Positions 1 to 17,237 of a stretch of 64,000 nucleotides of DNA are shown here, piece by piece. The translations under genes and the position numbers were made by a program. Location: NCBI GenBank assembly GCA_020850015.1, contig JADZFF010000102.1, positions 128-64,127 on the forward strand, in the 5' to 3' direction. The stretch's first letter is position 1. Each line of letters begins with the position of its first letter. Origin of the DNA: Bdellovibrionales bacterium (GTDB lineage Bacteria; Bdellovibrionota; UBA1018; JADZFF01). Under the pieces are notes generated by a model. The model worked only from the letters and a program-made list of their open reading frames with translations. It made no database searches and was not told the origin of the DNA.

Positions 1-500
1 GCTGGCAGTACCCCGACTTCTGGGTCAACGGGCTGATCAAGGGCCGGCAGAAGAAGGTGAAGAAGGCGATGCCCTTCATCATCGATCTGCTCGCGCTCTC
101 CACGGAGGCGGGTCTCGATTTCGTGGGCGCCATGGCGAAGGTCGTGGAAAAGGCCGCCCCCAGCCCACTCGTGGAGGAGTTCGGGCAGGTTCTGAAGGAG
201 ATCAAGGTTGGGTCCTCGCGCCAGGCGGCCCTCAGGGAGATGGCGGCGCGCGTGGACATGCCGGAGATCGGCTCGTTCGTCGCGATCCTGATCTCAGCCG
301 AGCAGATGGGAGCCTCGATCGGAAAGATCCTGCGTCAGCAGTCAGAGATGATCCGAATCGAGCGGTTCGTCATGGCGGAGCGGGCGGGCGCCATCGCCGG
401 CCAGAAGCTGATCCTACCGATCGTTCTGATCGTTCTTCCCGCCGTGATGCTGATGATTTCCGCGCCGTTCGCCCTCCAGTTCCTGGGCGGGGGCGGGTGA
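1..500 (+). CDS. tadC: Flp pilus assembly platform protein, TadC-like (T2SS-F family), 5' end cut by window edge
   Basis: The frame is open from base 3. The last 147 aa show the GspF/TadC pattern (LALSTEAGLDF, ISAEQMGASIG, terminal TM helix LILPIVLIVLPAVMLMI). Confidence 0.75.
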   Translation, partial: WQYPDFWVNGLIKGRQKKVKKAMPFIIDLLALSTEAGLDFVGAMAKVVEKAAPSPLVEEFGQVLKEIKVGSSRQAALREMAARVDMPEIGSFVAILISAEQMGASIGKILRQQSEMIRIERFVMAERAGAIAGQKLILPIVLIVLPAVMLMISAPFALQFLGGGG

Positions 501-901
501 TAGGGGGGGCGAGAATGAGCCGTCAAAGAATCGTCGCCATCCGAATTCTCAGAACGGACCGGGTAATTGCCGACAAGTGTCAGGTAGCGGAGCGCTTTCT
601 TCCGCGCTTCCTGGGCTTGATGGGAAAAGGGGGGTTGGGACCGGGCGAGGCGATGCTTTTTCCGCGCTGCGGAAGCGTGCATATGTGGTTCATGAGGTTC
701 CCCATCGACGTGGTGTTCCTCAAGACGGAGTCCGGCGCGGACGGGGGTTCCACCCATCGCGTGGTTTCTGTCCGTGCGCACGCGCGGCCCTGGCGGCCGT
801 TGCCGCTCACCGAGCTTGGCGCGGATGACACGCTCGAGCTGCCCGCCGGTGCGGCGGACGGCGCGGGGCTCGCTCCCGGGGAGCTTCTATGTATAAAGTA
901 A
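497..901 (+). CDS. DUF192 (COG1430) family protein
   Basis: Contains FLGLMGK..L.PGEAMLFPRCGSVHMWFMRFPIDVVFL and a C-terminal LELPAG....GL.PGE, the DUF192 pattern. The GTG at 497 overlaps the tadC stop (GTGA); an alternative ATG lies at 515. Confidence 0.7.
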   Translation: MIGGARMSRQRIVAIRILRTDRVIADKCQVAERFLPRFLGLMGKGGLGPGEAMLFPRCGSVHMWFMRFPIDVVFLKTESGADGGSTHRVVSVRAHARPWRPLPLTELGADDTLELPAGAADGAGLAPGELLCIK

Positions 902-2526
902 CCGTCATCTCCGGGCCGAACCGAGGCACGAGCTACGTCTTGAACGAGGGCGAGACCACCGTGGGCCGTCAGGCCGGCAACGTGATCGTGCTGCCCTCGG
1001 GGAAAGTCTCCAAACGCCACTGCGCCTTCGTGATGACGAACGGCCAGCTCAGCGTGGCCGACAAGGGATCCTCCAACGGAACCTTCGTGAACGGCGTGCT
1101 CAGCAAGGCGCGTCCGATCCGCGAGGGCGATCGCGTGAGCGTCGGGGACATCGTATTCGAGGTTGGACGCCCGGCCGCGAAACGATCGGTGCCCGCCGCC
1201 GCGCCGGCGCTCGGTGGGTTCGGCTTTCCCCAGCAGAGGGGGGGCGCCGGGCTCACGGGCTTGGGTTCCCTGGGCGCCTCTTCGGCGCCCGTGGTGGATC
1301 AGGACGTTTCTGGAAGCAGCTCAGTAGAGGCGCCCGTTCCCACGGACCTGAAAGGTCGCCTGGTCTGGATCTTCGAGCGCTCCGTCATGCCGCTCTTTTA
1401 CGGCGCCAACCTGAAAAACGAATGGAAGACCATCATCGTAGGGATGTTCTCGGTCTTCGTCGTGCTTTCGATGGGGATCTCCATGTATCCGCTGCTGATG
1501 GCGAACCAGCAGACCGTAATCAACGAGACGGGCGGCCGGGCGCGCTTCATGGCCCGCCAGATCATCGAGAAGAACGCCGGCGCCATCGCCGCCCAGGCGG
1601 AATCCAAGGCTGAGATCGGGGGGATCGCGCGGGAGGACGGGGTGATCCTCGCGGTCCTGACGGATCTCGACAACCGGATCATCGCGCCCGCTTCGAACGC
1701 CAATAGCCATCTGAGCGCCGGAAACATCGGCCTAGTTGCGCGGAAGGCGGCCAAGAAGTTCCAGGAGGGTACCGAGACGGGGTTCATCCTCAAGGCCGAT
1801 GAGAGCACCATCGTCGCAGTCGAGCCGCTGAAGATCCTCCACCCCAGGGCGGGCAGGAACGTCACCGTGGCGATGGCGGTTGTGGCCATCGATCTCACGC
1901 TCTCGACTCCGAGCATCAGCACGATAGCGGTGACTTACTCGCACAGCTTCGTCATCACGTCCATTCTCGGGGCGCTGCTCCTGATCGTGCTCTATCGGCT
2001 CACCCTCAAGCGTTTCGAGGTGCTGAACGAGGACATCGACAAGGTGCTGAAGGGCGAGATGTCGTCCGTCACCAACGAGTTCAAGGCGGAGGAGTTCAAT
2101 CAGCTCTGGGACGTCATCAACTCGGCCATGCAGCGGCTTCCGAAGGATGGTGGCGACGGCGCCCAGAGCGGGCCTTCGTCTGACCCCACGGAGGAGTTCC
2201 TCGGTCCGGCGAAGATGATGGGGGAGGTATCGCCCTTCGGCGTCCTGGTCTGCGACGTCGACAAGAAGATCCTCTACACCAACAGGATCTTCGAGGAAGT
2301 GGCCGGGATTCGCGCTTCGGACGTGGCGGGGCAGGAGATCTCCGCGGCCGCGCGCGACCAGGCCTTCGCCATGTTGGTCACCGATCTCTTCTCGCAGGCG
2401 AAGGGAGGCGTCCTCGCCTCGGAGGATTTCGAGTTTTCTGGTGTTCCGTTCCGCGTACAGGCTTCCGCGTTTGGAGGCTCCAACGCCAAGGGCTACCTGT
2501 TGGTAGCGGTCAAGGCGGAGGGGTGA
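889..2526 (+). CDS. FHA-domain membrane sensor-like protein (FHA, TM, extracytoplasmic loop, TM, HAMP-like, PAS-like; no catalytic output)
   Basis: N-terminal FHA pattern (TTVGRQAGNVIVLPSGKVSKRHC...ADKGSSNGTFVNG). Two hydrophobic helices flank a ~130 aa loop, followed by an amphipathic linker and a C-terminal PAS-like segment. Its start overlaps the DUF192 stop. Confidence 0.8.
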   Translation: MYKVTVISGPNRGTSYVLNEGETTVGRQAGNVIVLPSGKVSKRHCAFVMTNGQLSVADKGSSNGTFVNGVLSKARPIREGDRVSVGDIVFEVGRPAAKRSVPAAAPALGGFGFPQQRGGAGLTGLGSLGASSAPVVDQDVSGSSSVEAPVPTDLKGRLVWIFERSVMPLFYGANLKNEWKTIIVGMFSVFVVLSMGISMYPLLMANQQTVINETGGRARFMARQIIEKNAGAIAAQAESKAEIGGIAREDGVILAVLTDLDNRIIAPASNANSHLSAGNIGLVARKAAKKFQEGTETGFILKADESTIVAVEPLKILHPRAGRNVTVAMAVVAIDLTLSTPSISTIAVTYSHSFVITSILGALLLIVLYRLTLKRFEVLNEDIDKVLKGEMSSVTNEFKAEEFNQLWDVINSAMQRLPKDGGDGAQSGPSSDPTEEFLGPAKMMGEVSPFGVLVCDVDKKILYTNRIFEEVAGIRASDVAGQEISAAARDQAFAMLVTDLFSQAKGGVLASEDFEFSGVPFRVQASAFGGSNAKGYLLVAVKAEG

Positions 2527-2598
2527 GCGACGGCATGAGGTGAGATGGGATCAGCGGTCCGATACAAACACACGGACGTCCCCCGCCAACCCGGGGAG

Positions 2599-3585
2599 AT
2601 GGCCAGGTTCAAGGTCGTGCAAGGGCCCGATCAGGGAGCGGTGTACGTATTGACGGGACCGAAGGCGACGGTAGGCCGGGGCGAATCGAACGATCTGGTG
2701 GTTTCGGACCTGAAGGCCTCACGGCTTCACGCCGAGATCTCCCAGGTTGGGCCGGACTGGGTGGTGAAGGACCTCGGGAGCGTCAATGGGATCCTTTACA
2801 ATGGGAAGGCCTCGAAATCCGCCACGCTTCGCATGGGCGACACGTTCACGTTGGGAGAGACCACGCTTGAGTTCATGAGCGCCGAGGCGGGCACGATGAT
2901 GCTGCGGGCGCCGGCGAAGAGCGTGGTCCAGGTGCGGGAGAATCTGCAGGCGGTGGAAGGGCAGAAGGAGCGCGTCCGCAAGATGACCACCTTCGGCGGG
3001 CTCAAGGAGTTCGCCGCAGGGCTGGGCGGCGGAGATACCGGCGCCATGGGCCAGGAGCAGAAGAAGAAGCTCATGATTCGCGTCGTCGCCGGGCTGGTCA
3101 TCGCCTGGTTCCTGATGGACGAGATGTTCCCCTCCGCCCCGCAGAAGCCGGAGGGGCGAAAACCCGCCGCCATCTCGGCGAACAAGGAAGCCGAGGACCT
3201 CGGAAAATACCTGCCGAAACCCGACAGCCCCGAAATCAACCGGGCCGCTGACATGTTCTTCAAACAGGGGTTCCGGGAGTTCCGCGAGAAGAACTACCTC
3301 CGCGCCAAAGCGAATTTCGAGAACGTGCTGCGGGTCGACCCGGGGCATCGGCTCGCGCGGCTCTACCTGCAGAACTCCACCATGGCGATTGCGGAAGACA
3401 CGAAGAGCCTTCTGGAGCAGGGAAAACGCTCGATGACCTCCGGGAAATATCGGGACGCAAAGGGGGCCTTCGAGAGCGTGCTTCGCCTCTTGTATTACGA
3501 CCAAAGCAACCCGGCCTATGAAGAGGCCAAGGAGCAGCTGCAGAAGGTGAAGGATAAGATGGCTGGCGCGGAGGCGACGAGTTGA
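2599..3585 (+). CDS. FHA-domain protein with TM helix and C-terminal TPR repeats
   Basis: FHA pattern ATVGRGESNDLVVSDLKASRLHAEI...KDLGSVNGILYNG, a TM helix (LMIRVVAGLVIAWFLM), and TPR-like YLRAKANFENVLRVDPGH. The ATG at 2599 has a GGGGAG RBS, although the ORF opens at 2545. Confidence 0.8.
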   Translation: MARFKVVQGPDQGAVYVLTGPKATVGRGESNDLVVSDLKASRLHAEISQVGPDWVVKDLGSVNGILYNGKASKSATLRMGDTFTLGETTLEFMSAEAGTMMLRAPAKSVVQVRENLQAVEGQKERVRKMTTFGGLKEFAAGLGGGDTGAMGQEQKKKLMIRVVAGLVIAWFLMDEMFPSAPQKPEGRKPAAISANKEAEDLGKYLPKPDSPEINRAADMFFKQGFREFREKNYLRAKANFENVLRVDPGHRLARLYLQNSTMAIAEDTKSLLEQGKRSMTSGKYRDAKGAFESVLRLLYYDQSNPAYEEAKEQLQKVKDKMAGAEATS

Positions 3586-3586
3586 T

Positions 3587-5959
3587 ATGTCGGCCGCGCT
3601 GAAGCTCAAGATCTTCAAGGACGGCGCTCAGGTGAGGGAGGACCTCATCTCGGACAAGCTTGACGTCGGGCGGGGCGACGACTGCGTGATCCAGCTCGAC
3701 GACCGCGCAATCTCCCGGCGCCATGTCTCGATCCGGCCCGTGGATGGTGGCCTCGAGGTGGAGAAGCGCAGCGAGTTCGCGCCTCTTTCCGTGAACGGCG
3801 CCGAGTGCACGCGGGCCCTGGTGAAGGGCGGGGACGTGATCCAGATCGGCCCCTATCTGGCCCGCGTCGAGGAGCAGGCCACACAGCCCTCGCCGGCCGC
3901 GAAGCCGGCTCAGCGCGCGGCCGCGCCCCCGGCGGCTGACCCTCCCACCGCGATTCTGCCTTTGGAGAGTCCGGAGATGGCGCCCGTCGCCGAGCTCGTC
4001 GTCGAGCCCGAGCCTCAGACGGGGCAGGAAGGTGAGCTGCCTGAGCTGGCGCCCTTGGACCTTCCGGCGGCCGAGATCGCGCAGGAACAGGCGAGCGCCC
4101 TCGAGGAGGTGCCGGCGATGGAGGGCGATGGAGCCCTTGACGGCCTCGCCGCGCCCATCGAGGCCTCCTCCGGCGATGGGGACGAGTTCGCGGCCGCGCC
4201 GGCGATGGAGGATCCCGCCGGGGTGGCGGACCCCTATCCCGACGAGGACGGGGCTACGCGGCTGACTCCGATGGGCAACGTGCGCGTGATGCTGACGCTC
4301 GATCCTGGAAAAGCCAACGTCACGGAGTTCGAGATCAAGGGCAACGAGGTGATCCTGGGCCGCAGCAAAAATTGCGAGATCGTTCTCGAGGACAAAAAGG
4401 CATCGAGGAAGCACACGCTCGTGCGCAAGGCCGGATTGAATTTCGTGGTGAAAGACCTCGATTCGGCGAATGGGACATATCTGAATGGAGTGAAGATCCA
4501 GGAGCAGGAGCTCTCCGGGGACGACGTGATCCGCATCGGGGATACCGACATCCGATTCGTGGCTCTGAGCACCGAATACGAGGCGAACCAGGCCCAGTAC
4601 GAAAGCGTGCCGGAGGAGCAGGAATCGCCAGTGGGCGATGCGATGGGCGAGCAGCCGCTGGATCCCGGCCAGGGAGCGCTGATGGAGCAGCCAGGGGGAG
4701 ACATGCAGATGCTGGCCCCTGGTGGCCTCTCCATGGATCCCGGAGCGGGGGTCATCCAGGGCGCCCCCATCCTCGGAGCGCCGGCCATCGGCGAGGAACC
4801 GAAGAGCCTCATCGCGAAATTTCGCGCCATGGATCCGAAGAAGCGCCGCAAGCTGGTGATCTACATCGCCATCGGGGTGCTTCTGATCGACGAGGTCTTC
4901 CCTGATCCGGAACCTCCGAAGCCGAAGGCGGCCGCGGTCCAGAAGAAGAAAGCGGATCCCGGAGCGAAGACGGGAAAAAGAACCTTCGACGAGCTCTCCG
5001 ACGAGCAGAAGCGCTTCGTGGAGGCTCAGCACGCGCTTTCGTTCGAGAAATACAGGGGACAGGATTTCGATCAGGCGCTCTACGAGATCCAGAAGATCTT
5101 CGATCTGGTGGATGAGTACAAAAACTCCCGGGAGATCGAACGTTACGCCAAGGAGGGGAAGCGGAAGGCGGAGGTGATGAAGGAGGAGACGCGCAAGCGC
5201 GAGGAGGAGCAGCGTCTCAAGGACAAGATCGCGGAGCTGATCGACGAGGCCGGAAAGCTCATGGCGCAGAAGGCCTTCGACCAGGCCGAGCCGGTGTTCG
5301 GCCAGGTCCTGGCGCTGGATCCAGAGAACCAGGTTGTCCTGGCGTGGCAGCGCGAGATTCAGAAACACCGCGAGGAGCTAGCGGAGAAGGAGCGCGACCT
5401 CGAGATTCAGGCCCAAATCAACCAGAACGCCAAGGATCTGCTCGCCGAGGGGATCGCGCTGAAGGAGAAGGGCAAGATCTGGGAGGCCATCGAGAAGCTC
5501 GGCAAGGTCAAGGAGATCAACGCGAGCGACAGATCGATCGCGGCCGACGCTGAGACGAAGATCGAGGAGATCCGGTCCGAGATCAAAGCCAAGCTGGATC
5601 CGCTGATCGCCCAGGCGAAGGACAAAGAGGCCGCTTCCGAGCTCGGGGAGGCTTACCGACTCTTCGATGAAGCCACCAAGATCGACCCCCGCGATAAGCA
5701 GGGATTCGAGGGGATGGATCGAATCCGGGCCGTGCTCAACGACCAAGCCAAGGCGAAGTACGTGGAGGCCGTGGTGGCGGAGAGTTACAGCGACTTCGCG
5801 GTTTCCAAGAGGATCTTCGAGGAGATCGTCAAATCGGCCCCGCCGGGAACTCTTTATCATGAGCGCGCCAAGGCGAAGCTGAGACGCTACATCGTGCTGC
5901 CTCCCGAGGAGGATGGCGGCGGTTCCGGGGGCGGACCGCCCGCGGGGGGAGGAAACTGA
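3587..5959 (+). CDS. Dual-FHA membrane protein with acidic Pro-rich linker and long TPR/coiled-coil C-terminal region
   Basis: Two FHA patterns (LDVGRGDDCVIQLDDRAISRRHV... and VILGRSKNCEIVLEDKKASRKHT...KDLDSANGTYLNG) and a TM helix (LVIYIAIGVLLI), then about 330 aa of TPR-like/coiled-coil sequence. Confidence 0.8.
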   Translation: MSAALKLKIFKDGAQVREDLISDKLDVGRGDDCVIQLDDRAISRRHVSIRPVDGGLEVEKRSEFAPLSVNGAECTRALVKGGDVIQIGPYLARVEEQATQPSPAAKPAQRAAAPPAADPPTAILPLESPEMAPVAELVVEPEPQTGQEGELPELAPLDLPAAEIAQEQASALEEVPAMEGDGALDGLAAPIEASSGDGDEFAAAPAMEDPAGVADPYPDEDGATRLTPMGNVRVMLTLDPGKANVTEFEIKGNEVILGRSKNCEIVLEDKKASRKHTLVRKAGLNFVVKDLDSANGTYLNGVKIQEQELSGDDVIRIGDTDIRFVALSTEYEANQAQYESVPEEQESPVGDAMGEQPLDPGQGALMEQPGGDMQMLAPGGLSMDPGAGVIQGAPILGAPAIGEEPKSLIAKFRAMDPKKRRKLVIYIAIGVLLIDEVFPDPEPPKPKAAAVQKKKADPGAKTGKRTFDELSDEQKRFVEAQHALSFEKYRGQDFDQALYEIQKIFDLVDEYKNSREIERYAKEGKRKAEVMKEETRKREEEQRLKDKIAELIDEAGKLMAQKAFDQAEPVFGQVLALDPENQVVLAWQREIQKHREELAEKERDLEIQAQINQNAKDLLAEGIALKEKGKIWEAIEKLGKVKEINASDRSIAADAETKIEEIRSEIKAKLDPLIAQAKDKEAASELGEAYRLFDEATKIDPRDKQGFEGMDRIRAVLNDQAKAKYVEAVVAESYSDFAVSKRIFEEIVKSAPPGTLYHERAKAKLRRYIVLPPEEDGGGSGGGPPAGGGN

Positions 5960-6714
5960 TGCGCGGAAATCCGATGAAGGCGGTGACGGTGTTCACGAGC
6001 GCGGGCCAGTGCCCGTTCATCGAGGAGCACGCCGAGGTGAACCGCGACCGCGGGATCTTGGTGTTGGCGGATGGTTTCGGCGGTCCGGTGGCGGGCGCAG
6101 ACGCCGCCCGCTCGGCCTGCACGAGCGTACGCCAGTTTCTTGAGAAGGAGGCAGGCGACGAGGAGGCGACTCTGCCCTTTGTCCTCCGCGGATACTACTC
6201 GCTTGCCGGCAACGTGCTATTCAACGCGTTAGTACATGCGAACCGATCAGTTCGAAAGCTGAACGTTTCCCGCAACGTTCATGAGAAGGGAGGCGCCTCG
6301 GTTGCAGCGGGTTACCTGGATGGGAATCTGCTGGCGCTGGCCTCGGTGGGGGCCTGCCAGGCCTGGCTGTTTCGGGGCGGTAGGTCCGGGCGCCTGCTGA
6401 CTCCCAGGGACTACTCCTGGTTGCGTGATCCCCTGACCGAAGACCCGGAGCCCCAGTATCGCGCGCCCCTGGCCGCGCTGGGCATGCATGAGGACCTCGA
6501 GCCTGAGATCGTGGAATGCCAGGTGAGGCCGGGCGACTGGCTGCTGATCCACAGCGGGGGACTGGGTGGCGCCGCCCGGGGAAAACTACTGGAGCTCCAC
6601 CAGGACGCGGCGGACGAGCCCGGAGTTGCGGAAAGGGCCAGACGTGTCTTGGAAGACACCCAAAATCGGGGCGAATTTCAGTCTAACTGTTCGGCATTGC
6701 TTGCCTTATTTTAA
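5959..6714 (+). CDS. PP2C-like Ser/Thr phosphatase fold, possibly catalytically degenerate
   Basis: ILVLADGFGGPVAGADAA matches PP2C motif ADGMGG. The expected GDSR, SDGL and DNxT positions read GACQ, SGGL and SNCS. Its ATG overlaps the previous stop by 1 nt. Confidence 0.65.
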   Translation: MRGNPMKAVTVFTSAGQCPFIEEHAEVNRDRGILVLADGFGGPVAGADAARSACTSVRQFLEKEAGDEEATLPFVLRGYYSLAGNVLFNALVHANRSVRKLNVSRNVHEKGGASVAAGYLDGNLLALASVGACQAWLFRGGRSGRLLTPRDYSWLRDPLTEDPEPQYRAPLAALGMHEDLEPEIVECQVRPGDWLLIHSGGLGGAARGKLLELHQDAADEPGVAERARRVLEDTQNRGEFQSNCSALLALF

Positions 6715-6718
6715 TCCC

Positions 6719-6745
6719 TAAAACTTGACAGCAATACTCCGATAA
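6719..6745 (+). promoter_or_regulatory. Sigma-28 (FliA)-type promoter candidate upstream of flp1
   Basis: TAAAactt-N11-TCCGATAA compared with the consensus TAAAGTTT-N11-GCCGATAA, with exact spacing. It sits in the only AT-rich stretch before the pilin gene. A TTGACA at 6725-6730 overlaps it. Confidence 0.5.
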
Positions 6746-6829
6746 ATCATCATTGTAGGTAGGGTCCGGGCCCTCTTTGAGGCCTGGTCGGGCTCCCCGT
6801 CTGGGGCGGGGGATAAGGAGTAAGGGCTT

Positions 6830-7021
6830 ATGAAGTCATTGAAGAGCAAGCTTTTGAGCTTCCTGAGGGAAGAAGAAGGCCAGTCCACGACGGAATACAT
6901 TCTCATCTTGGCCGTCGTGATGGTGATCGCCATGAAGTTCAAGAGCGGCATCTCGGACCAGCTCGGGCGAGCCACCGAGAAGATCGGCGAGAAGATCGGG
7001 AACACGGTCGACGACATCTGA
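6830..7021 (+). CDS. flp: Flp/Fap family type IVb prepilin
   Basis: 63 aa with a basic leader, then the G/QSTTEY processing motif and a hydrophobic helix ILILAVVMVIAM. A GGAG RBS lies upstream. Confidence 0.85.
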   Translation: MKSLKSKLLSFLREEEGQSTTEYILILAVVMVIAMKFKSGISDQLGRATEKIGEKIGNTVDDI

Positions 7022-7039
7022 TCGCGGCCGGCGCGGGCA

Positions 7040-7058
7040 CCGGGCAATCTTTGCCCGG
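7040..7058 (+). terminator. Stem-loop just after flp1 (attenuator/terminator-like, no U tract)
   Basis: CCGGGCAA-tct-TTGCCCGG, 19 nt after the flp1 stop codon. Confidence 0.4.
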
Positions 7059-7088
7059 TCCCCCATCGCCTGACGGAGGCGCCGCTCA

Positions 7089-7098
7089 GGGGGGGGGG
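7089..7098. repeat. G10 homopolymer tract in the flp2 promoter region
   Basis: Ten consecutive G, counted directly. It ends 13 nt upstream of a TAGAAT hexamer (7112-7117), which lies 22 nt before the flp2 ATG. Confidence 0.9.
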
Positions 7099-7138
7099 CG
7101 CGCCTACGTGTTAGAATTCCTTTGTGGGGGTATCAGAA

Positions 7139-7390
7139 ATGTTCACGCTCGCACGTGCGCCCACGGCGCCGCGGGCCCATTCCCGTCGCTCGGGACTTGT
7201 CCGTGACGAAAGCGGCCAGTCGACGGTCGAGTACATTCTTCTTCTCGCCTTCGCCATGCTCATCGCGGTTGGGATGTTTTCCGCCCTCAACGAGGGGTTG
7301 AACGAGGGGGTGCTCGCTTTCGGCGCGGCGCTCGAACGCGATCTGCAGACGGGAGGCATGCCTGCTGGCGCATGGGCCGAGGCTCTCTGA
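7139..7390 (+). CDS. Flp-type prepilin paralog with long leader
   Basis: G/QSTVEY motif followed by ILLLAFAMLIAVGMF. The ATG is at 7139, with an alternative GTG at 7124. Confidence 0.7.
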   Translation: MFTLARAPTAPRAHSRRSGLVRDESGQSTVEYILLLAFAMLIAVGMFSALNEGLNEGVLAFGAALERDLQTGGMPAGAWAEAL

Positions 7391-7403
7391 GCTCGCACTC
7401 CTG

Positions 7404-7919
7404 GTGGTGAGCGCCGCCGCCCTCTTGGCGGCCGCTACGGATCTTTTCCGGGGGAAGATCTACAACTGGCTCACCTTTCCGGTGGCCGTGGCAGGGCTTG
7501 TCCATGGCGCCTGGGGCGGAGGCCTCGCGGGGCTGGGATCCGCCGCCGCGGGCCTGGGATTGGGGCTTCTGCTGCTCGGGTGGATGTACCCCATGGGATT
7601 CATGGGGGCCGGCGACGTGAAGCTCCTGGCGGCGCTCGGCGCCTGGATGGGGCCCGCCCTCACCGTGGAAACCGCGCTGGTCTCGATCGCGCTCGGAGGG
7701 GTGTTGGCGCTCCTGCTGCTCGCGGTCAGGGGGAAGATTCGCGCGTTCCTGTCCAGGGCCTATCTCTTCCTGGCGGGAATCTTCGTCAAACAGCTCGTCG
7801 CTGCGCCGATGACGATCGACAGGTCGCAGCGAATGGCCTTCGGCCTGCCTTTGGCAGCGGCGGCGATTCTCTGCGCCTGGGACGACCCGTTCGGGAGGCT
7901 CGGATGGCGGCTCTGGTGA
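7404..7919 (+). CDS. cpaA: Prepilin peptidase CpaA/TadV (A24 aspartic peptidase)
   Basis: Polytopic membrane protein carrying both catalytic Asp contexts (AATDLFRGKIYN and GAGDVKLLAALG). Confidence 0.85.
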   Translation: MVSAAALLAAATDLFRGKIYNWLTFPVAVAGLVHGAWGGGLAGLGSAAAGLGLGLLLLGWMYPMGFMGAGDVKLLAALGAWMGPALTVETALVSIALGGVLALLLLAVRGKIRAFLSRAYLFLAGIFVKQLVAAPMTIDRSQRMAFGLPLAAAAILCAWDDPFGRLGWRLW

Positions 7920-8179
7920 AAGGGAATTCGGGGCAGACCACGGTTGAGTACATCCTCGTGCTCGCCGTGGTGGTTTCGTTCTTCGTGATCGTCCAGCGGG
8001 GCCTTCTGGATTCGGGCGCGATGGGAAAGCTCGGGAACATCACCTCGCGCGGCTTCAAGCAGGCATACGAGTTTGGACATCCGCGCGCCCTGGGCCCGGA
8101 TGAGGGCGGGCCCGAGAAGCACATCAGGATCCCCGAGGGGAACAATTTCCGGATGTTCATCAATCCCAGGGCGAATTGA
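7904..8179 (+). CDS. Flp-like prepilin/pseudopilin with C-terminal extension
   Basis: MAALVKGNSG/QTTVEYILVLAVVVSFFVI. The ATG at 7904 overlaps the cpaA 3' end by 16 nt. 91 aa. Confidence 0.7.
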   Translation: MAALVKGNSGQTTVEYILVLAVVVSFFVIVQRGLLDSGAMGKLGNITSRGFKQAYEFGHPRALGPDEGGPEKHIRIPEGNNFRMFINPRAN

Positions 8180-8190
8180 AGGAGGAGACC

Positions 8191-8718
8191 ATGAAGCTGA
8201 GGAAAAACGAGTCGGGACAGGCCACGATCGAGTTCGCGCTGACCTTGATTCTTCTCCTGGTCTTCGTCTTCTTCTACGTCCAGCTCGGCCTGGTCATGGC
8301 CTTCGCGAATTACGTTCAATACGCCACTTTCATGTCTTCCAGGGCCCTGGTGTCTTCCGCCGCCACGGATCAGGAGCAGAACGAGGCCGCGACCCGCGTC
8401 CTCGGAAGCATGGTCAAGAAAGGGGCCTTCGATACGGGCTCCGACCGCTGGCCCAGCATCGCCAAGGGCGTGGAAGGGGATGCGGTCGTAGGGGCCACCA
8501 TCGGCTCGGGCCCGCTATTCGCCCCGAAAAATAAGGATCAGTCTTGGCAGGAGGGAGTCCGATACACCTTCAGGAGCCGACTGTTCCTGCTGCCGTTCGG
8601 TGACGTGCCGGGCGCCATAAAATTGACGTCAGAAAGCTGGCTAGGGCGCGAGCCCACGAAGAGCCAGTGCGAGACGTTCATGAGTGGCGTTGGGGGGATC
8701 ATCGACAATGGCTGCTGA
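8191..8718 (+). CDS. TadE-like pseudopilin
   Basis: N-terminal ESGQATIEFALTLILLLVFVFF (TadE N-terminal motif). A GGAGGAG RBS lies at 8181-8187. Confidence 0.75.
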   Translation: MKLRKNESGQATIEFALTLILLLVFVFFYVQLGLVMAFANYVQYATFMSSRALVSSAATDQEQNEAATRVLGSMVKKGAFDTGSDRWPSIAKGVEGDAVVGATIGSGPLFAPKNKDQSWQEGVRYTFRSRLFLLPFGDVPGAIKLTSESWLGREPTKSQCETFMSGVGGIIDNGC

Positions 8719-9295
8719 GGAAAAGCCGGCCCCGGAAAGGAAACGGAGCGTCCCTGCGGGGGGCGATGCGGGGGAGTCCGGGCAAAGCATCCTGGAGTTC
8801 CTGCTCATGGTGCCTCTGATGATCGGTCTTTCGACGCTCATGGTGAGGGTGAATACGGTGATTCAGGTTTCGATAGCCAATCAGAAGTACGCGCGTGCCC
8901 AGGCGTTCTTCCTGACTTACAACAGCCCCTATTACCCGGAGCTGCGTCTTCGGCAGCGCCTGGTGAACCAGGAATCCAATGAGATGATCATCGGCGTATC
9001 CGACAAGATCGCGCCGAAGAGCGAGGATCAGGCGGAGTACGACCCGGATCCCATCATCGTTCCGATCGTCTCGGCGTCTTCGCTGGCGGGCGAAAGCCAG
9101 GAACCCGAGCTGCCCCCCGAAGGCGGGAAGCGCGGCCGCGTGCGAGTCCGCACCACCGTCACGCTTTGCACGCAAGTGAACGTCGTCGAGACGGGCGACG
9201 GTTTCGTGCCCTACGACGGGTCTTCGATGCTCACTGAGACCCCCGTCGCCGGGCAGGTCACGTTCCCGTTCTGCAGGGGGGTATTCAGTGAATAA
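8708..9295 (+). CDS. TadE/TadF-like pseudopilin
   Basis: ESGQSILEFLLMVPLMIGLSTLM motif after a charged leader. The ATG at 8708 overlaps the previous gene. Confidence 0.65.
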   Translation: MAAEEKPAPERKRSVPAGGDAGESGQSILEFLLMVPLMIGLSTLMVRVNTVIQVSIANQKYARAQAFFLTYNSPYYPELRLRQRLVNQESNEMIIGVSDKIAPKSEDQAEYDPDPIIVPIVSASSLAGESQEPELPPEGGKRGRVRVRTTVTLCTQVNVVETGDGFVPYDGSSMLTETPVAGQVTFPFCRGVFSE

Positions 9296-10166
9296 TCGCG
9301 CGCTCACGCTATCCGTGGTCATGGGCATCCTCGCGGTGTTCTTCGTGCAAAGCTATGTGACGAGCATCGAGGACGGGGCCCGCAAGAAATTCGGCACCGA
9401 GGTGCTGGTCGTCGCCGCGAAGCAGGATATCGAGGAGATGGGCACGATCGACGAGACGATGCTCGAGCTCAAACCGATTCCCAAGACCTTCCTTGAGCCG
9501 GCCGCGATGGCCTATACCAAGGGCGAGGACGAGCAGGCGATCCAGGCCAAGATCAAGGAGCTGGCCGGCTACGTGGCCAGCGTACCGATCCGCCAGGGCG
9601 AGCAGCTGACGCTGAACAAGATCGTGGAGCCGAGCATCCGGACCGGCCTGGCCCCTCAGGTCACGCCCGGGCGCCGCGCGATCGCGATCCAGGTGAATGA
9701 CATCAGCGCGGTGAGCAAGCTGCTGAAGCCGGGCGACCGCGTGGATCTGACCGCGGTGGTCGAAGTCCAGGCGAACGCCCGGGCAAACCCGCTTGCCACG
9801 AAGCTCGCGAAAACGATCCTTCAGGACATCGTGATCCTGGCCGTGGGCCAATCGGTGACGAACAACGCTCCGCGGATCTTCGAGAAGGACGGCAGCTCCA
9901 CGAAGGCGCCCCTCAAGATGCGCTCGCTGGTGACCTACAATCAGTACACTACGGTGACGATCGAGGTGGAGCCCGCCCAGGCCCAGATGCTGGCCCTCCT
10001 GAACGCCGGCGCGCTCGTGCTCACGCTCCGAAACAACGACGACTCGGAACGCGTGGGCCTCGCCGGCATGACGATGATGGACGTGCTCGGGGCCGACGCG
10101 GTGAAGATCCTGCCGCCGCCGCCCCAGGCGGCGCCGGTGGCCAGGAAACCGGCGGGAGGAAAGTAA
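9288..10166 (+). CDS. cpaB: Flp pilus assembly protein CpaB/RcpC
   Basis: N-terminal TM anchor, then a SAF-like segment (VLVVAAKQDIEEMGTI) and an RcpC-like beta-rich region. It sits between the pseudopilin genes and the secretin gene. Confidence 0.8.
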   Translation: MNNRALTLSVVMGILAVFFVQSYVTSIEDGARKKFGTEVLVVAAKQDIEEMGTIDETMLELKPIPKTFLEPAAMAYTKGEDEQAIQAKIKELAGYVASVPIRQGEQLTLNKIVEPSIRTGLAPQVTPGRRAIAIQVNDISAVSKLLKPGDRVDLTAVVEVQANARANPLATKLAKTILQDIVILAVGQSVTNNAPRIFEKDGSSTKAPLKMRSLVTYNQYTTVTIEVEPAQAQMLALLNAGALVLTLRNNDDSERVGLAGMTMMDVLGADAVKILPPPPQAAPVARKPAGGK

Positions 10167-10170
10167 CGGC

Positions 10171-11847
10171 ATGAAACGGCTCCTCCTGGCGGCGCTTCCC
10201 CTTCTCTCGGCGGCCATCCTGGCCGCTGGGGGAATCGTGCGCGCGGAGGATGAGGCACCCGCTGAGGCGCCTTCGCCCGCGGCGGTTCCGTCTGAGGAGG
10301 CTCAGGCCGCGCCAGCGGCTGGCTCGGACGAGGGCGGAGCGGAACCCGGAAAGAGCCTGATCAGCACGAAGTCGGAGAAATCGGCGGAAAGGCGCCGGGA
10401 GCTCCTCACGATCGGCGAGGACAAGCTCGTCGACCTGGAGTTCGACGCGAACGTGTCAGGCAACGGCGTGATCGAAGGCAACAAGGCCGTGGCGACGGCT
10501 CAGCTCGTGCGCGTCCTGGGCAAACCGAAACAGGTGCTCTTCAAGCCTTTGAAAGAGGGCACTACCACGGTTACCATTCGCGACTCGGAGGCGAAGGTGA
10601 GGGTGATCTTCGACATCACCGTCACCTCGACCAACCTGGCTCAGCTCCTCAGGGAGCTCCAGGACCTGCTTCGCGACATCGAGGGGATCGAGCTGCGTGT
10701 GGTGGGGAAGAACATCCTCGTGGATGGCGAGGTGCTGACGCCCAACGACTACGGACGCCTCCTGGGCGTGATCGAGGAGCCCAACTCGCCCTACAAGGAC
10801 GTGGTGATGAACCTCGTCATGTTCTCGCCTCTCGCTCTCCAGTCGCTCGCCAAGCGCATCGAGGGAGACGTAAAATCCTTCGCTCCCGAGGTGCGGGCCA
10901 GGGTGGTCAACGGCAGGATATGGCTCACCGGATCCGTTGAAAATCGCGACCAGGCTCGAAGGGCCGTGGCGGTTGCGGAGCTCTACGTTCCGGAGGTCCG
11001 GCCGCAGGAGCCCCTCGAGAAGTTCGACGAGAACGCGAAACGGCTCACGCCCAAGCCGCTCATCCAGAATTTCATCACGATCAACGCGCCTCCTCAGAAG
11101 AAGGAGGAGAAGCTCATCAGGATGACCGTTCACTTCGTGGAGCTGAACAAGGACTATGCCCGGACCTTCGGGTTCAAGTGGCAGCCGGGCTTTACCCAGG
11201 ACGAGAGCATCACGCTCGCCACGCAGGAGGACGGGGACGCCGGCGCCGGCGGCTCCGGGAGCTTCACCGCCACCATCTCCAACCTCTTTCCCCGCCTCCA
11301 GAGCGCTCAGTCCGCCGGTTTCGCCCGCGTCCTGAAAACTGGAACGATCATGGTACGGAACGGCCAGGCCGCCTCGCTTCGCGATCTCTCGGGGTTCGCG
11401 TTCTCGCTGCCCAACGCCGGCGGCCAGAGCGGCAACGAGCAGGTCACCACCGGGATCAACGTGGCGGCCACGCCGAAGATCGTGGGCAAGACCGAGGACG
11501 TGGAGCTCGATCTCGATCTGAGGCAGGTCAACATCATCGGCATCACCGTGCAGGGCGCGCCGATCACCGCTACTCACGAAGTGAAGACGAAGATCTTCGT
11601 GCGTTCCAAGGAGAGCGCCGCAGTCGCCGCGGTGAACAGCGCGGAGATCACGACGGAGTTCAACAAGACGGATCCCGCGCCGGGCAGCTTCAGCGGTCAG
11701 ACCGGGCCGCTTTTCTCGCTTCTTCGGTCGAAGGATTACCGGAAGAAGAAGAACCAGGTGGTGATCTTCGTCACGCCGCAGATTGTCGAGAACGCCTCCG
11801 ATGGAACCGCGGACCTCAAGAAGAACTTCAGGGTGAAGGCGGAGTGA
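10171..11847 (+). CDS. cpaC: Tad secretin CpaC/RcpA
   Basis: Signal peptide, BON-like N-domain and a secretin C-domain (ARVLKTGTIMVRNGQAASL...GPLFSLLRSKDYRKKKNQVVIFVTPQIV). Confidence 0.9.
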   Translation: MKRLLLAALPLLSAAILAAGGIVRAEDEAPAEAPSPAAVPSEEAQAAPAAGSDEGGAEPGKSLISTKSEKSAERRRELLTIGEDKLVDLEFDANVSGNGVIEGNKAVATAQLVRVLGKPKQVLFKPLKEGTTTVTIRDSEAKVRVIFDITVTSTNLAQLLRELQDLLRDIEGIELRVVGKNILVDGEVLTPNDYGRLLGVIEEPNSPYKDVVMNLVMFSPLALQSLAKRIEGDVKSFAPEVRARVVNGRIWLTGSVENRDQARRAVAVAELYVPEVRPQEPLEKFDENAKRLTPKPLIQNFITINAPPQKKEEKLIRMTVHFVELNKDYARTFGFKWQPGFTQDESITLATQEDGDAGAGGSGSFTATISNLFPRLQSAQSAGFARVLKTGTIMVRNGQAASLRDLSGFAFSLPNAGGQSGNEQVTTGINVAATPKIVGKTEDVELDLDLRQVNIIGITVQGAPITATHEVKTKIFVRSKESAAVAAVNSAEITTEFNKTDPAPGSFSGQTGPLFSLLRSKDYRKKKNQVVIFVTPQIVENASDGTADLKKNFRVKAE

Positions 11848-11851
11848 GGTC

Positions 11852-13993
<2,142 letters not shown>

Positions 13994-14003
13994 GGGGAAG
14001 GGG

Positions 14004-14879
14004 ATGTTTTCGAGCTGGGAGGCTTTTCTGGGGATTCTGGGCATCGGCGTGGCCGTCGGTGGGATCTCCTATCGCTACAACAAGCGGTTCCTGGAGTGGC
14101 TCCGCTTCCACTCGATCGGCACCCGCGATTACATCGCCGAGCGGCTTTCCTCCATGTTCATCGAGATCCCGCCCAATACGATCTTGATCGGGCAGTTCAC
14201 GCTGAGTTTCGGGTTGGGGTCGGTTGTCTTCCTCCTCCTGCTCCCTAAGTGGTTCCTCGGCCTGTTATTGGGAGGGATTGTGATGATCGTCGGCTGGAAG
14301 GTGCCGAAGCCGGTGGTCGACATGATGTATTCCCGACGGGTCAGCAAGCTCGTGGCCCAGATGGTGGACGGCCTGGGATTGATGTCCAACGGGATGAAAT
14401 CAGGCCTGTCCGTGGTCCAGGCGATGGGCCTCGTGACGCAAGAGATGCAGAACCCCATCCGGCAGGAGTTCGAGCTCATCCTGAACGAAAACAAGTTGGG
14501 CGTCTCGCTGGAGGAGGCGTTCACGAATTTCTCGAAAAGGGTGAAATCGGACGACGTGGAGATGTTCGTCACCTCCGTGAACATCCTGAAGGAGACCGGC
14601 GGGAATTTGGCGGAAACCTTCGATACGATCGTCTCCACGATCCGCGAGCGCGTGAAAGTGGAGAACAAGATCAAGGCTTTGACCTCGCAGGGGCTCGTGC
14701 AGGGGATCTTCGTGATGTCCGTGCCCCCGGTCCTGGGGTTTCTGCTGTATCAGAGCGATCCGGACTTCATGCGGCCCCTGTTTACGACTACCATTGGATT
14801 GATTGTCTGCATGGTGATCGTCGTTCTGGAAGTGATCGCGTTCTTCATCATCAGGAAGATCGTCACGATCGACGTATAA
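14004..14879 (+). CDS. tadB: Flp pilus assembly platform protein TadB (T2SS-F family)
   Basis: A single T2SSF-type domain (LVAQMVDGLGLMSNGMKSGLSVVQAM...NILKETGGNLAETFDTI) flanked by TM helices. Confidence 0.8.
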   Translation: MFSSWEAFLGILGIGVAVGGISYRYNKRFLEWLRFHSIGTRDYIAERLSSMFIEIPPNTILIGQFTLSFGLGSVVFLLLLPKWFLGLLLGGIVMIVGWKVPKPVVDMMYSRRVSKLVAQMVDGLGLMSNGMKSGLSVVQAMGLVTQEMQNPIRQEFELILNENKLGVSLEEAFTNFSKRVKSDDVEMFVTSVNILKETGGNLAETFDTIVSTIRERVKVENKIKALTSQGLVQGIFVMSVPPVLGFLLYQSDPDFMRPLFTTTIGLIVCMVIVVLEVIAFFIIRKIVTIDV

Positions 14880-14922
14880 TGGTTTTCTGGGATTATTCCG
14901 ATCAGACCCATTAGGGGGGTAT

Positions 14923-16614
14923 ATGCATCGTCAAAAGTCCGCCACTCGCTCGCTTGGTATCTTCGCGGCCGCGCTTCTCCTAGGCGCCGCCGCGCCCGCC
15001 CTGGCGAACGTCAGCCTCCGAAACGGGAACTTCTTCATTGGATACACGGACATCATCTATCCGGGGGGGTTCGAGCCCAAGATCGAGCGTGTCTACAACT
15101 CGAAGTCCGGGTTCAGGGGGATCTTCGGCTGGGGTTGGGGAACCGAGTACGAGGTGCATCTCAAGGTGGCCGCCGACGGCAGCGTCGTGGCTCATGAGTA
15201 CGGCGGCGGCGCGGAGAACAGGTTTTCCCCCGTGGCTTTCAACCAGGCGCAGCTTCAGGGAGCGGCCGACGAGATCGCGGCGGCCGCTCAGAAAGCCGGC
15301 GCCGTGGGCAGCGCGGGCCAGTTGGCCGATCTTAAGAAAAGGCTCCTGGGCGACGCGCGTTTCCGCAACCAGGAATGGGAGAAGTACATCCAGCGCGGGC
15401 TCCTGAAGCCCCGGCAGCTTCCGGCGGGGACCCAGCTCACCTCGAATCGCTTCAGTTATCAATACATCACCAAGGTGAAGGACGGGTATGTCCGGAGCTA
15501 CGACAACGGGCGCGTGGAGCAGTTCGCCGAGAACGGCCGCCTCCTGAAGATCTCCGACAAGAACAACAACTTCATCCAGATCTCGTATTCGAAAGACGGC
15601 AAGGCCGACAAGATCGTCGACAACTTCAACCGCAAGATGTTCCTGACCTACAACGCCCAGGGGAACCTGGTGAAGATCCAGGGTGAGAACGGGAAGGAGG
15701 CCGCCTATACCTACGGTTCGCGTGGCGAGCTCCTTACGAGCAAGGACGTGGATGGCAACACCTACGCCTACACCTACGACAAGATCTACAACCTGACCCA
15801 GGTGAAGTACAAGGACGGGACGTCGATGGATATCGCCTACCTGGGCCGGGATCAGAACGATTCCGTGAGATCCGTGAAAGACCGGGATGGAACGCGCACC
15901 GACTACACCTACGACTGGAGCAAGAAGGAAACGGGTTTCCGCTCGGTGGGCGTGAAGGTTCTCGATAAGGATGGGAAGCGGGTCATCTCGCAGAGCGGAT
16001 ACGAGTACCACCTTAAGCGTAAGGCGAGCGGCGAGGAGTGGACCTACAAGATGGTCACCACCATCGACGGCGACCGCAGCGAGACGATCTACAACGAGTG
16101 TTGCGGCCTTCCGCTGATGATCAAACGCGGCGGCGAGGAAACCACTTTCGAGTACGACACGAAGGGGCACGTGACGAAGAAGACCACCCCCACCGAGACG
16201 ACCGTGCTCGCCTACGACCCGAAGCTGGGCAAGGTGACGAAGGTGATGCGCCAGTCGAAGGTGAGCAAGGCGAGCTCGAGTTGGTCGGAGTTCCAGTACG
16301 ACGGCAAGGGGAACCTGGTGTTCGCGAAGAACTCGACGAACAAGGGGGTCCGCCTGTTCTACGACGCCAACGGACGGATCAAGAGCATGGTGGACCAGGA
16401 CCGCCGCCGCATCGACTTCAAGTACAACGAGAACTCGAAGCCGGTGGAGATCACCGACCCCCAGCTCGGCACCATCCGCGTGAGCTACTCGAACAGCGGG
16501 GAGATCAAGAAGGTGGAGAGCACCGCGGGCCGGAAGATCGCGCTGCAGGTGACTTCGGCCTTCCAGAACCTGCTCGACATCATCCGCCCGGCGGGCGTGA
16601 GCCTGAGCTTCTAG
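14923..16614 (+). CDS. Secreted RHS/YD-repeat protein without recognisable C-terminal toxin or core
   Basis: Signal peptide (AAPALA/N) and a DUF6531-like start (GNFFIGYTD...RVYNS...GIFGWGWGTEYE). Many YD repeats follow (YTYGSRGELLTSKDVDGNTYAYTYD, FEYDTKGHVTK, FYDANGRIKS). It ends ...VSLSF. Confidence 0.8.
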   Translation: MHRQKSATRSLGIFAAALLLGAAAPALANVSLRNGNFFIGYTDIIYPGGFEPKIERVYNSKSGFRGIFGWGWGTEYEVHLKVAADGSVVAHEYGGGAENRFSPVAFNQAQLQGAADEIAAAAQKAGAVGSAGQLADLKKRLLGDARFRNQEWEKYIQRGLLKPRQLPAGTQLTSNRFSYQYITKVKDGYVRSYDNGRVEQFAENGRLLKISDKNNNFIQISYSKDGKADKIVDNFNRKMFLTYNAQGNLVKIQGENGKEAAYTYGSRGELLTSKDVDGNTYAYTYDKIYNLTQVKYKDGTSMDIAYLGRDQNDSVRSVKDRDGTRTDYTYDWSKKETGFRSVGVKVLDKDGKRVISQSGYEYHLKRKASGEEWTYKMVTTIDGDRSETIYNECCGLPLMIKRGGEETTFEYDTKGHVTKKTTPTETTVLAYDPKLGKVTKVMRQSKVSKASSSWSEFQYDGKGNLVFAKNSTNKGVRLFYDANGRIKSMVDQDRRRIDFKYNENSKPVEITDPQLGTIRVSYSNSGEIKKVESTAGRKIALQVTSAFQNLLDIIRPAGVSLSF

Positions 16615-16750
16615 GGCCATGCCCCGGAGGCCGACCAAGGATTCGACAGATAACAGCGTTCAGTCGGAGGCCGGGCCCATGTGTCGGGTCGGACACGGAA
16701 CTAAGGGCCTGGAATCAAAGGGGACCGAAATTCCCGCGCGAAGCGAGGCG

Positions 16751-16766
16751 TGGCACCGGAGTTGCT
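16751..16766 (+). promoter_or_regulatory. Sigma-54 promoter (-24/-12)
   Basis: TGGCAC-cggag-TTGCT, an exact match to TGGCAC-N5-TTGCW, 56 nt upstream of the ATG at 16822. An inverted repeat GTGTC-N6-GACAC lies at 16681-16696. Confidence 0.75.
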
Positions 16767-16821
16767 CTCTAGTAGGGCGTATCCGAAGTGATAGAATGAA
16801 AACGAGCAGAGGAGTTTCGAC

Positions 16822-17001: not shown

Positions 17002-17034
17002 TCTCGCGGGACGAGCTCACAATCGATTTTCTTG

Positions 17035-17221: not shown

Positions 17222-17237
17222 TGGCACCACCGTTGCA
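17222..17237 (+). promoter_or_regulatory. Sigma-54 promoter (-24/-12)
   Basis: TGGCAC-caccg-TTGCA, an exact consensus match about 105 nt upstream of the ATG at 17343. Confidence 0.75.

Follow-up and report, generated by a model that had tools for sequence, protein, structure and literature searches.

Bdellovibrio bacteriovorus needs a Tad machine to hold and invade its prey, and silencing of rcpA, the secretin gene, blocks prey invasion. A preprint on the Tad genes of this species describes a TadZA fusion and a separate tadC locus, together with uncharacterised neighbours carrying TPR, FHA, PAS and histidine-kinase domains (bioRxiv 10.64898/2026.07.08.737194). In strain HD100 the tadC operon comprises Bd0470 (T2SSF), Bd0471 (DUF192), the FHA genes Bd0472, Bd0473 and Bd0474, and Bd0475, a hypothetical protein. 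All six genes belong to the attack-phase, predation-essential set, and the operon has been studied genetically (PMC6561027). The Bd0470::tn mutant fails to attach to prey. The Bd0474::tn mutant attaches without prey rounding, killing or invasion, and this defect was complemented (PMC6561027). The Bd0474 protein is built of two FHA domains in the cytoplasm, a transmembrane (TM) segment and an extracytoplasmic TPR domain, and it binds the TPR protein Bd0075 through the periplasmic domains in a BACTH two-hybrid assay; an AlphaFold-Multimer prediction joins Bd0473 to Bd0475 at an ipTM of 0.60 (PMC12034629). The present study concerns the Tad locus in a 64,000-nucleotide stretch (the window) of contig JADZFF010000102.1, from a Bdellovibrionales metagenome-assembled genome, and in particular three FHA genes and a PP2C-like gene which lie between tadC and the flp pilin genes.

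The other closely related system is the Tad-like Kil apparatus of Myxococcus. Seef et al. (2021) reported that FHA proteins are over-represented in it, that FHA+TPR and PrgH-like FHA genes lie beside kilH/tadC, and that the systems of Bdellovibrionales and Bradymonadales fall in the Kil clade (PMC8460266). Killing by Myxococcus requires KilD, an FHA+TPR protein that gathers at prey contacts even when the Tad core is missing. The enrichment of FHA proteins in the Myxococcus Kil loci and in the Tad loci of Bdellovibrio and like organisms (BALO) has thus been published since 2021 (PMC8460266; PMC12428579; bioRxiv 10.64898/2026.07.08.737194). A first-pass annotation of the window, made from the letters alone, pointed the right way but, in view of these reports and of the earlier work on Bd0470–Bd0475, made the FHA-augmented Tad machine out to be newer than it is.

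The window harbors a Tad (type IVc) pilus locus of Bdellovibrionota, of the BALO type, and is a further example of a known system. By their order and domain content, the genes at nt 497–6714 are the counterparts of HD100 Bd0471–Bd0475, and they make up an accessory module, headed by tadC and conserved throughout the phylum. We lean towards the view that the module is a phosphothreonine (pThr)-dependent envelope adaptor, which would gate a step after attachment to prey. What is new here is the unsplit organisation of the locus, the synteny counts, the assignment of the PP2C-like gene to the PPM family together with a predicted loss of catalysis, the predicted build of FHA_A as a kinase-less sensor, and an invariant threonine. 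The genes of the module are the following.

1-500, plus strand: 3′ half of tadC, encoding a T2SSF platform protein (Pfam T2SSF, E 1e-15); counterpart of Bd0470.
497-901, plus strand: DUF192 protein (Pfam DUF192, E 2e-14); counterpart of Bd0471, which is annotated DUF192 in HD100.
889-2526, plus strand: FHA_A, 545 residues (Pfam FHA, E 1e-14, residues 23-86); counterpart of Bd0472.
2599-3585, plus strand: FHA_B, 328 residues from the ATG at 2599 (Pfam FHA, E 9e-14); counterpart of Bd0473.
3587-5959, plus strand: FHA_C, 790 residues (two FHA stretches in Pfam, E 4e-26); counterpart of Bd0474.
5959-6714, plus strand: protein of the PPM/PP2C family, 251 residues (family profile); counterpart of Bd0475.

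The tadC gene is truncated by the left edge of the window, with its frame open from nt 3, and is 60–85% identical to the copies of relatives. The longest open reading frame (ORF) of FHA_B begins at nt 2545. The profile search detected four FHA domains within 5 kb, on the three genes for which the first-pass annotation had proposed them. Because the four matches have E-values from 1e-14 to 4e-26, chance is excluded for the FHA block. The ORF coordinates also bear out the tight junctions described earlier, which overlap or leave 1 nt: DUF192 starts at 497 and tadC stops at 500, FHA_A starts at 889 and DUF192 stops at 901, FHA_B stops at 3585 and FHA_C starts at 3587, and FHA_C stops at 5959, where the PP2C-like gene starts. 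The block is followed by the rest of the Tad genes.

6725-6753, plus strand: promoter-like site, TTGACA-17-CATCAT (consensus match only).
6830-7021, within 7124-7390, and about 7904-8179, plus strand: three Flp-type pilins (Pfam Flp1_like for 6830-7021; motif in the translations).
7404-7919, plus strand: cpaA, prepilin peptidase (Pfam Peptidase_A24).
8176-8718, plus strand: tadE-like gene (Pfam).
8684-9295, plus strand: second pseudopilin-like ORF.
9288-10166, plus strand: cpaB (Pfam RcpC and SAF).
10171-11847, plus strand: cpaC, secretin (Pfam Secretin and BON).
11852-13993, plus strand: tadZ-cpaF fusion, 'TadZA', 713 residues (Pfam CbiA/ParA at residues 6-211, T2SSE at 363-638).
14004-14879, plus strand: tadB (Pfam T2SSF).
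14923-16614, plus strand: secreted DUF6531/RHS-YD-repeat protein, 563 residues (Pfam, NCBIfam YD repeat, signal peptide); counterpart of Bd0109.

The Tad region is a series of genes on the same strand with high third-position GC. The hallmarks of a Tad system are all present, namely the Flp pilin, the CpaF/TadA ATPase, two T2SSF proteins, the secretin, CpaB/RcpC, the A24 peptidase and TadZ. The complete set downstream of the block, with three Flp-type pilins, had been read correctly in the first-pass annotation: Pfam identifies the components, and the motif GQ(S/T)T(T/V)EYIL can be read in the translations of all three pilin ORFs. Neither Pfam nor NCBIfam matched the accessory parts TadD and TadG in the locus; Kil and HD100 likewise lack them or encode them elsewhere. 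Bd0109, the counterpart of the last listed gene, is the RHS/YD protein of the HD100 'hit locus' (PMC3818213). Directly after the RHS/YD gene, an ORF of 68 residues at nt 16619–16825, without a Pfam match, takes the position of Bd0108, the small partner of Bd0109.

The FHA block was previously placed in the middle of one Tad operon. The linkage to the tad genes stands, and the single transcript looks unlikely. The 115-nt gap between the PP2C-like gene and flp is the sole sizeable gap in the series. The site at nt 6725–6753 lies within it and is the top sigma-70-like match of four in nt 1–17500; no terminator-like site was found in the gap. Because the gap holds the best sigma-70-like site, two abutting transcription units are more plausible than one transcript, the first probably running from tadC to the PP2C-like gene and the second from flp to tadB and the RHS gene. 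The locus of HD100, and that of three other genomes, is split at the same point as this putative flp promoter gap.

To follow the module through the phylum, one genome per species was scanned, which yielded 59 Bdellovibrionota loci. Gene order was counted over 58 loci by tblastn with 15 window proteins, each denominator being the loci with contigs long enough. The tadC-DUF192 pair lies directly upstream of FHA_A in 43/50 loci. FHA_B is kept in order in 47/50, FHA_C in all 44 of 44, and the PP2C-like gene in 38 of 40. The flp/cpaA genes and those that follow are at most 4 kb downstream in 28/31 loci, and the FHA block is detached from the pilus genes in three genomes. The tadZA/tadB part is colinear in the relatives. 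Synteny of FHA and tad genes across Bdellovibrionota, set beforehand as a test, is thus strongly positive. The full-length named homologs of FHA_A, FHA_C and the PP2C-like protein retrieved in homolog searches are all from Bdellovibrionota. Upstream of tadC lie housekeeping genes on the opposite strand, among them those for a GH3 hydrolase and ABC permeases; they were considered as regulators and rejected, and tadC is the first gene of the unit. Across Bdellovibrionota the FHA module physically belongs to the Tad locus and is ancestral to it.

The DUF6531/RHS-YD gene is found at the same place in two distant relatives, L062 and L063. In the former, a 1.68-Mb Oligoflexia contig, an extra gene of 550 codons without a Pfam match is inserted between the PP2C-like gene and flp (nt 10810–12462). 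Outside the phylum, the Firmicute Paenibacillus ginsengihumi (L061, nt 51–10228) has a Tad-like locus with CpaF, two T2SSF proteins and an A24 peptidase, followed by a DUF6382 protein of 596 residues whose C-terminal domain is FHA. Predators are therefore not alone in having FHA genes next to Tad-like loci.

The likeness to HD100 holds piece by piece. The content and order are the same, from T2SSF, DUF192, FHA, FHA, the double FHA-TM-TPR protein and the small protein, then from flp to the TadZA fusion and tadB, to the RHS/YD protein. TadZ lacks an N-terminal receiver-like domain in both, CbiA starting at residue 6 in the window. Four differences were observed. First, the tadC locus (Bd0470–Bd0475), tad locus 1 (Bd0110–Bd0119) and the hit locus (Bd0108–Bd0109) are separate in HD100 and contiguous in the window. 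Second, the window encodes a CpaA-type prepilin peptidase, whereas the preprint reports none in the HD100 tad loci. Third, Bd0475 is annotated as hypothetical, and the family in the window is PPM. Fourth, the identity is moderate: in a block of 115 CpaF residues taken from the Kil supermatrix of Seef et al., it is 53% to B. bacteriovorus, compared with 57% to Bacteriovorax stolpii, 55% to Halobacteriovorax marinus, 41% to Myxococcus and 35% to Caulobacter. The link to the Kil-type machines of predators made in the first-pass annotation is upheld.

The topology of the FHA proteins was derived from hydropathy and, for FHA_A and FHA_C, from AlphaFold models. A basic cluster precedes each TM helix. 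It had been claimed that every FHA domain is N-terminal to a TM helix and a large extracytoplasmic part; the first half is correct, and the second fails for FHA_A. Its FHA domain (residues 1–95) is followed by a disordered linker, TM1 (181–199), a periplasmic PDC/PAS-like domain (about 205–340), TM2 (about 350–370), HAMP-like helices (373–416) and a PAS domain (434–542). The periplasmic share is only about 140 residues, and the HAMP-like and PAS part is cytoplasmic. In the model (pLDDT 77), TM1 runs into a long helix and the periplasmic domain is alpha/beta.

The best long Foldseek match of FHA_A is a model of the sensor kinase WalK (9a5d_A, 392 columns), and its FHA part matches GarA, OdhI and the FHA domain of Bdellovibrio DgcB. 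An exhaustive HMMER search with residues 150–545 gave 292 cluster representatives at E ≤ 1e-10. Among the best 150 of these, the full-length proteins have about 500–585 residues and the match starts near residue 120–180. Because all of them share this N-terminal extension, the sensor module appears always to occur with FHA and never with a kinase core; kinase-bearing relatives were sought among the same best 150 of 292 matches, and none was found. By its model, FHA_A has the build of a WalK-like sensor (TM-PDC-TM-HAMP-PAS) that lacks the kinase and bears an FHA domain at its N-terminus.

Such a sensor raises the question whether the module serves the pilus at all. It might merely ride with tadC and control c-di-GMP production, gliding or the attack-to-growth switch instead of the pilus motor. 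Apart from the sensor-like build of FHA_A, this is in line with the probable promoter of the flp genes, with the detachment of the block from flp-tadZA in HD100 and three other genomes, and with the post-attachment phenotype of Bd0474. However, overlapping codons keep the block joined to tadC even where it is split from the rest, it remains beside the pilus genes in 28/31 genomes, and none of FHA_A, FHA_B and FHA_C contains an enzymatic or DNA-binding output domain according to Pfam and, for FHA_A and FHA_C, to the models. We therefore consider a role apart from the pilus improbable, and return to that of an adaptor acting on the Tad machine.

FHA_B consists of an FHA domain (residues 5–94; Pfam FHA/Yop-YscD_cpl), a linker, a TM helix (158–176) and a periplasmic TPR-like domain. 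FHA_B and the FHA2-linker-TM part of FHA_C are paralogs (BLASTP 7e-13). FHA_C has FHA1 (5–96), a disordered acidic and proline-containing linker (100–228), FHA2 (232–335), a second disordered stretch, a TM helix (423–441) and a periplasmic all-helical repeat domain (472–765). The build is that described for Bd0474. In the AlphaFold model, with pLDDT above 90 in the folded parts, short helix pairs of the periplasmic domain alternate with helices of about 30–46 residues. Foldseek with the whole FHA_C model returned FHA domains as all of its top matches, and none that classifies the periplasmic helical domain. A TPR protein of 935 residues is encoded elsewhere in the window (nt 49170–51977, plus strand). 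It was considered as a homolog of Bd0075 and rejected, since BLASTP against HD100 Bd0075 gave E 0.03, which is noise at the TPR level.

The TPR-like parts bear on the missing TadD. The periplasmic domains of FHA_B and FHA_C might replace this pilotin and aid secretin assembly, an idea suggested by the lack of a TadD-like gene in the locus, by the TPR-like helices themselves and by a weak BamD/YfiO-like match in FHA_B. TadD is, however, an outer-membrane lipoprotein, whereas FHA_B and FHA_C have an inner-membrane anchor and FHA domains in the cytoplasm. Moreover, the Bd0474 mutant attaches to prey, whereas rcpA silencing blocks prey invasion. A TadD-like function is thus very improbable.

If the module is pThr-dependent, its FHA domains should keep the residues that contact pThr. 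In FHA_A, the alignment shows G26, R27, S41, H44, S61, N63, G64 and T65 to be invariant. In FHA_B, GR, SR.H and GSxNG are conserved in 48 orthologs, and in FHA2 of FHA_C the pThr-contacting residues are invariant. The contacting Arg, Ser and Asn are therefore invariant in three of the four domains, across 44–57 species. The closest folds found by Foldseek are the pThr-dependent GarA, OdhI, FhaA and Bdellovibrio DgcB. FHA domains of the type III secretion system (T3SS) are poorer structural matches, at rank 29–44 with 18–19% identity.

A possible ligand is found within FHA_C itself. The linker between FHA1 and FHA2 is hypervariable and disordered, except at its end, which is formed by the motif [DE][DE]D-x-x-T-[KR]-[VIL]. 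The threonine of this motif is Thr224.

4256-4258, plus strand: codon of Thr224 of FHA_C (Thr in 44/44 orthologs; pLDDT below 50 there).

On the basis of this conservation, Thr224 is a candidate phospho-acceptor.

The last gene of the module had been described as PP2C-like. The description holds for the family and fails for the window copy on two counts, the Pfam score of the protein alone and its catalytic acids. Alone, the protein is below the Pfam cut-off (PP2C_2 21.3 bits versus 24; SpoIIE 20.5 bits, also below). The family profile built from 120 homologs matches tPphA over the full length (E 2.5e-16), and matches Stp1, PstP and PppA, the phosphatase of type VI secretion (the T6SS; 6jkv, E 6.5e-8), as well. 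NCBIfam Stp1_PP2C_phos is matched at E 2.6e-12. Judged by these profiles, Bd0475 and its relatives make up a true family of PPM phosphatases. Its four metal-binding positions, in motifs I, II, VIII and XI, are D/D/D/D in 97/120 homologs and D/D/D/E in 14. The profile alignment places no Asp of the GDS type, which binds the third metal, in the family.

The window copy has E23, D38, G200 and S242 at the four positions, and is the sole E/D/G/S among the 120. Since there are three independent substitutions, a sequencing slip is not the explanation. The copy is 48% identical to that of relative L002, compared with 41–53% for the neighbouring genes; being no more diverged than they are, it appears still to be under selection. 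The window copy is thus probably a pseudo-phosphatase which has lost three of the four metal-binding acids.

Conservation in the PPM family is highest in a block outside the catalytic core, at residues 64–95 (window nt 6148–6243), which is in part an insertion relative to tPphA. The invariant residues of this block are T71, P73, F74, Y79, S81, L82, N85, V86, F88 and N89, and include the T71-L-P-F stretch. T-L-P-F could be a docking site.

A pThr-dependent module also requires a kinase. No Hanks kinase was found in the window by Pfam on about 40 large ORFs or by a six-frame scan for HRDxKxxN, in accordance with the first-pass annotation. A kinase in cis was rejected, the Pfam scan of large window ORFs and the regular-expression scans of the window and of 61 related loci all being negative, and the kinase would have to act in trans. 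A precedent exists in Bdellovibrio, where the cyclase DgcB provides FHA-pThr control of invasion; Bd3148 is the published candidate kinase and is itself on the predation-essential list. The window does contain two-component genes, namely those for a GAF histidine kinase and its companion, a sigma-54 response regulator (nt 27402–31069, minus strand), a lone receiver protein beside Lon (nt 18439–18900, minus strand) and a sigma-54 activator without a receiver (nt 44627–45724, plus strand). None of the histidine kinase, lone receiver and sigma-54 activator genes is conserved beside the Tad locus in the relatives.

These data allow a model for the adaptor. The three FHA proteins would sit in the inner membrane beside the TadB/TadC platform. 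Their cytoplasmic FHA domains would dock onto pThr written by a Hanks kinase encoded elsewhere, with the Bd3148 class as candidate, and the invariant Thr224 in the linker of FHA_C itself would be among the likely targets. The periplasmic parts, a PDC-type sensor in FHA_A and helical TPR-like arrays in FHA_B and FHA_C, would reach partners in the envelope or outer membrane, as in the contact between Bd0474 and Bd0075. FHA_A would provide the periplasmic sensing. Phosphorylation-dependent assembly or rearrangement of the adaptor around TadB/C and TadZA may then license pilus retraction or prey entry. In most species the PPM phosphatase would reset the state; the window copy, its catalysis lost, would probably be only a binding partner. 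The gathering of KilD at prey contacts when the Tad core is missing fits an upstream, contact-responsive role.

A more specific version can be put forward tentatively, and we hold it to be possible though doubtful. In this version the FHA trio and the PPM protein would form a dedicated pThr-gated checkpoint of predatory Tad machines. FHA_A, a sensor in which an FHA output has taken the place of the histidine-kinase core, would read the state of the prey or envelope from the periplasm, a Hanks kinase in trans would modify a site of the Thr224 type, and the resulting assembly would switch the pilus from holding to entry. In lineages like that of the window, the phosphatase would have turned into a non-catalytic clamp.

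Several observations weigh against a pThr-dependent adaptor. FHA1 of FHA_C keeps GR, SR and H and is without the S-x-N-G-T loop. The residue at pT+3 after Thr224 varies, as it seldom does in FHA ligands. A regular-expression search, which would miss atypical kinases, detected no motif of a Hanks kinase within 10 kb in any of the 61 related loci. The degenerate phosphatase is as conserved as its neighbours, showing that a phospho-cycle in cis is not obligatory. Finally, orthology to Bd0471–Bd0475 is based on gene order, lengths, domain content and NCBI names, and the comparison at residue level on the 115-residue CpaF block.

The absence of a kinase motif in cis, the non-canonical FHA1 and the retention of a degenerate phosphatase also speak for a scaffold that works without phosphorylation. 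The FHA-TM proteins would then belong permanently to the Tad basal body, forming an alignment complex of the inner membrane and periplasm which other Tad systems lack, like SctD in the T3SS or GltG in the gliding machine of Myxococcus, with FHA as plain protein-protein modules. The periplasmic domain of FHA_C, which is large, well conserved and confidently folded, agrees with this, as do the periplasmic contact between Bd0474 and Bd0075 and the NCBIfam matches, weak ones, of the FHA part to GltG and SctD. Against a plain scaffold stand the invariant Arg, Ser and Asn in three FHA domains, to which the T3SS domains are the poorer matches, and the co-inheritance of a PPM phosphatase with an intact site in most genomes. 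The periplasmic folds are not ring-building motifs, and since attachment persists in the Bd0474 mutant, the pilus must work at least in part without Bd0474. A scaffold free of phosphorylation is in our judgement rather unlikely. The scaffold and gating ideas are compatible, since a scaffold can be phospho-regulated, and gating of a post-attachment step by pThr remains the reading we prefer.

How contact triggers the Kil and Tad machines was left open by the Kil and Bdellovibrio papers, and the checkpoint, if true, would answer it. The FHA proteins have been put forward in the literature as candidates for contact sensing and have not been dissected there. The window and its 58 relatives sharpen the question to one invariant Thr, a predicted real PPM family, a putative kinase-less sensor and a presumed kinase in trans. 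The predictions bear on HD100, where the orthologs are already known as needed for predation.

Two other regions of the window encode envelope components. A second secretin gene of 495 codons, with below-threshold GspD/PilQ matches, lies far from the Tad locus (nt 41335–42822, minus strand), and the ORFs beside it (nt 39354–40697 and 38085–39206) have no family match. A run of flagellar genes (FliF, FliI-type ATPase, FliK-like) occupies the right end of the window (nt 54370–62115, plus strand).

Compared with the canonical Tad/Cpa loci, Aggregatibacter flp-tad and Caulobacter pilA-cpa, the window locus shares Flp, the A24 peptidase, TadE-like proteins, CpaB, CpaC, CpaF and TadB/C. It differs by the added FHA module, PPM gene and RHS/YD gene and by the fusion of TadZ to CpaF. 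No TadD or TadG was found in the window locus, and the CpaF block is 35% identical to that of Caulobacter.

The first-pass annotation also drew an analogy to the YscD/PrgH class. SctD (YscD/PrgH) indeed has a cytoplasmic FHA fold, a single TM helix and a periplasmic part, and Pfam Yop-YscD_cpl is matched; to this extent the analogy is sound. It does not extend to the periplasm, where the window proteins have all-helical (FHA_C), TPR-like (FHA_B) and PDC/PAS-like (FHA_A) parts instead of ring-building motifs. It does not extend to the FHA domains either, which keep the pThr-binding residues and are closer to GarA, OdhI and FhaA. TIGR02500 matches the FHA part only, with 20–22 bits against a cut-off of 86.

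The mycobacterial fhaA-fhaB(fipA)-pstP-...-pknA-pknB operon likewise has two FHA genes adjacent to a PP2C gene, and FhaB/FipA is membrane-anchored. FhaB/FipA is the best NCBIfam match for all FHA domains of the window, with scores well short of the model cut-offs. The mycobacterial operon functions in cell-wall growth and division and has its own kinases. The likeness is at the domain level only. The PpkA-PppA-Fha1 (TagH) pathway of the Pseudomonas aeruginosa T6SS also brings FHA and PPM genes together with an envelope machine whose firing is triggered by contact. There the kinase is in cis, whereas none was found in the window. The window locus has no T6SS genes, and its FHA proteins span the membrane and have large periplasmic parts.

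With Kil (MXAN_3102-3108 and MXAN_4648-4661) the differences are in detail. KilF has an N-terminal FHA domain, whereas the ATPase of the window is fused to TadZ instead; the genes are split otherwise; KilD is described as cytoplasmic; a PP2C gene is not listed in the Kil clusters; and among the named matches, full-length homologs of FHA_A and FHA_C occur only in Bdellovibrionota. In both systems TadD is missing, and FHA+TPR and PrgH-like FHA genes lie directly beside tadC (kilH). Both are Tad-derived machines of predators which carry many FHA proteins.

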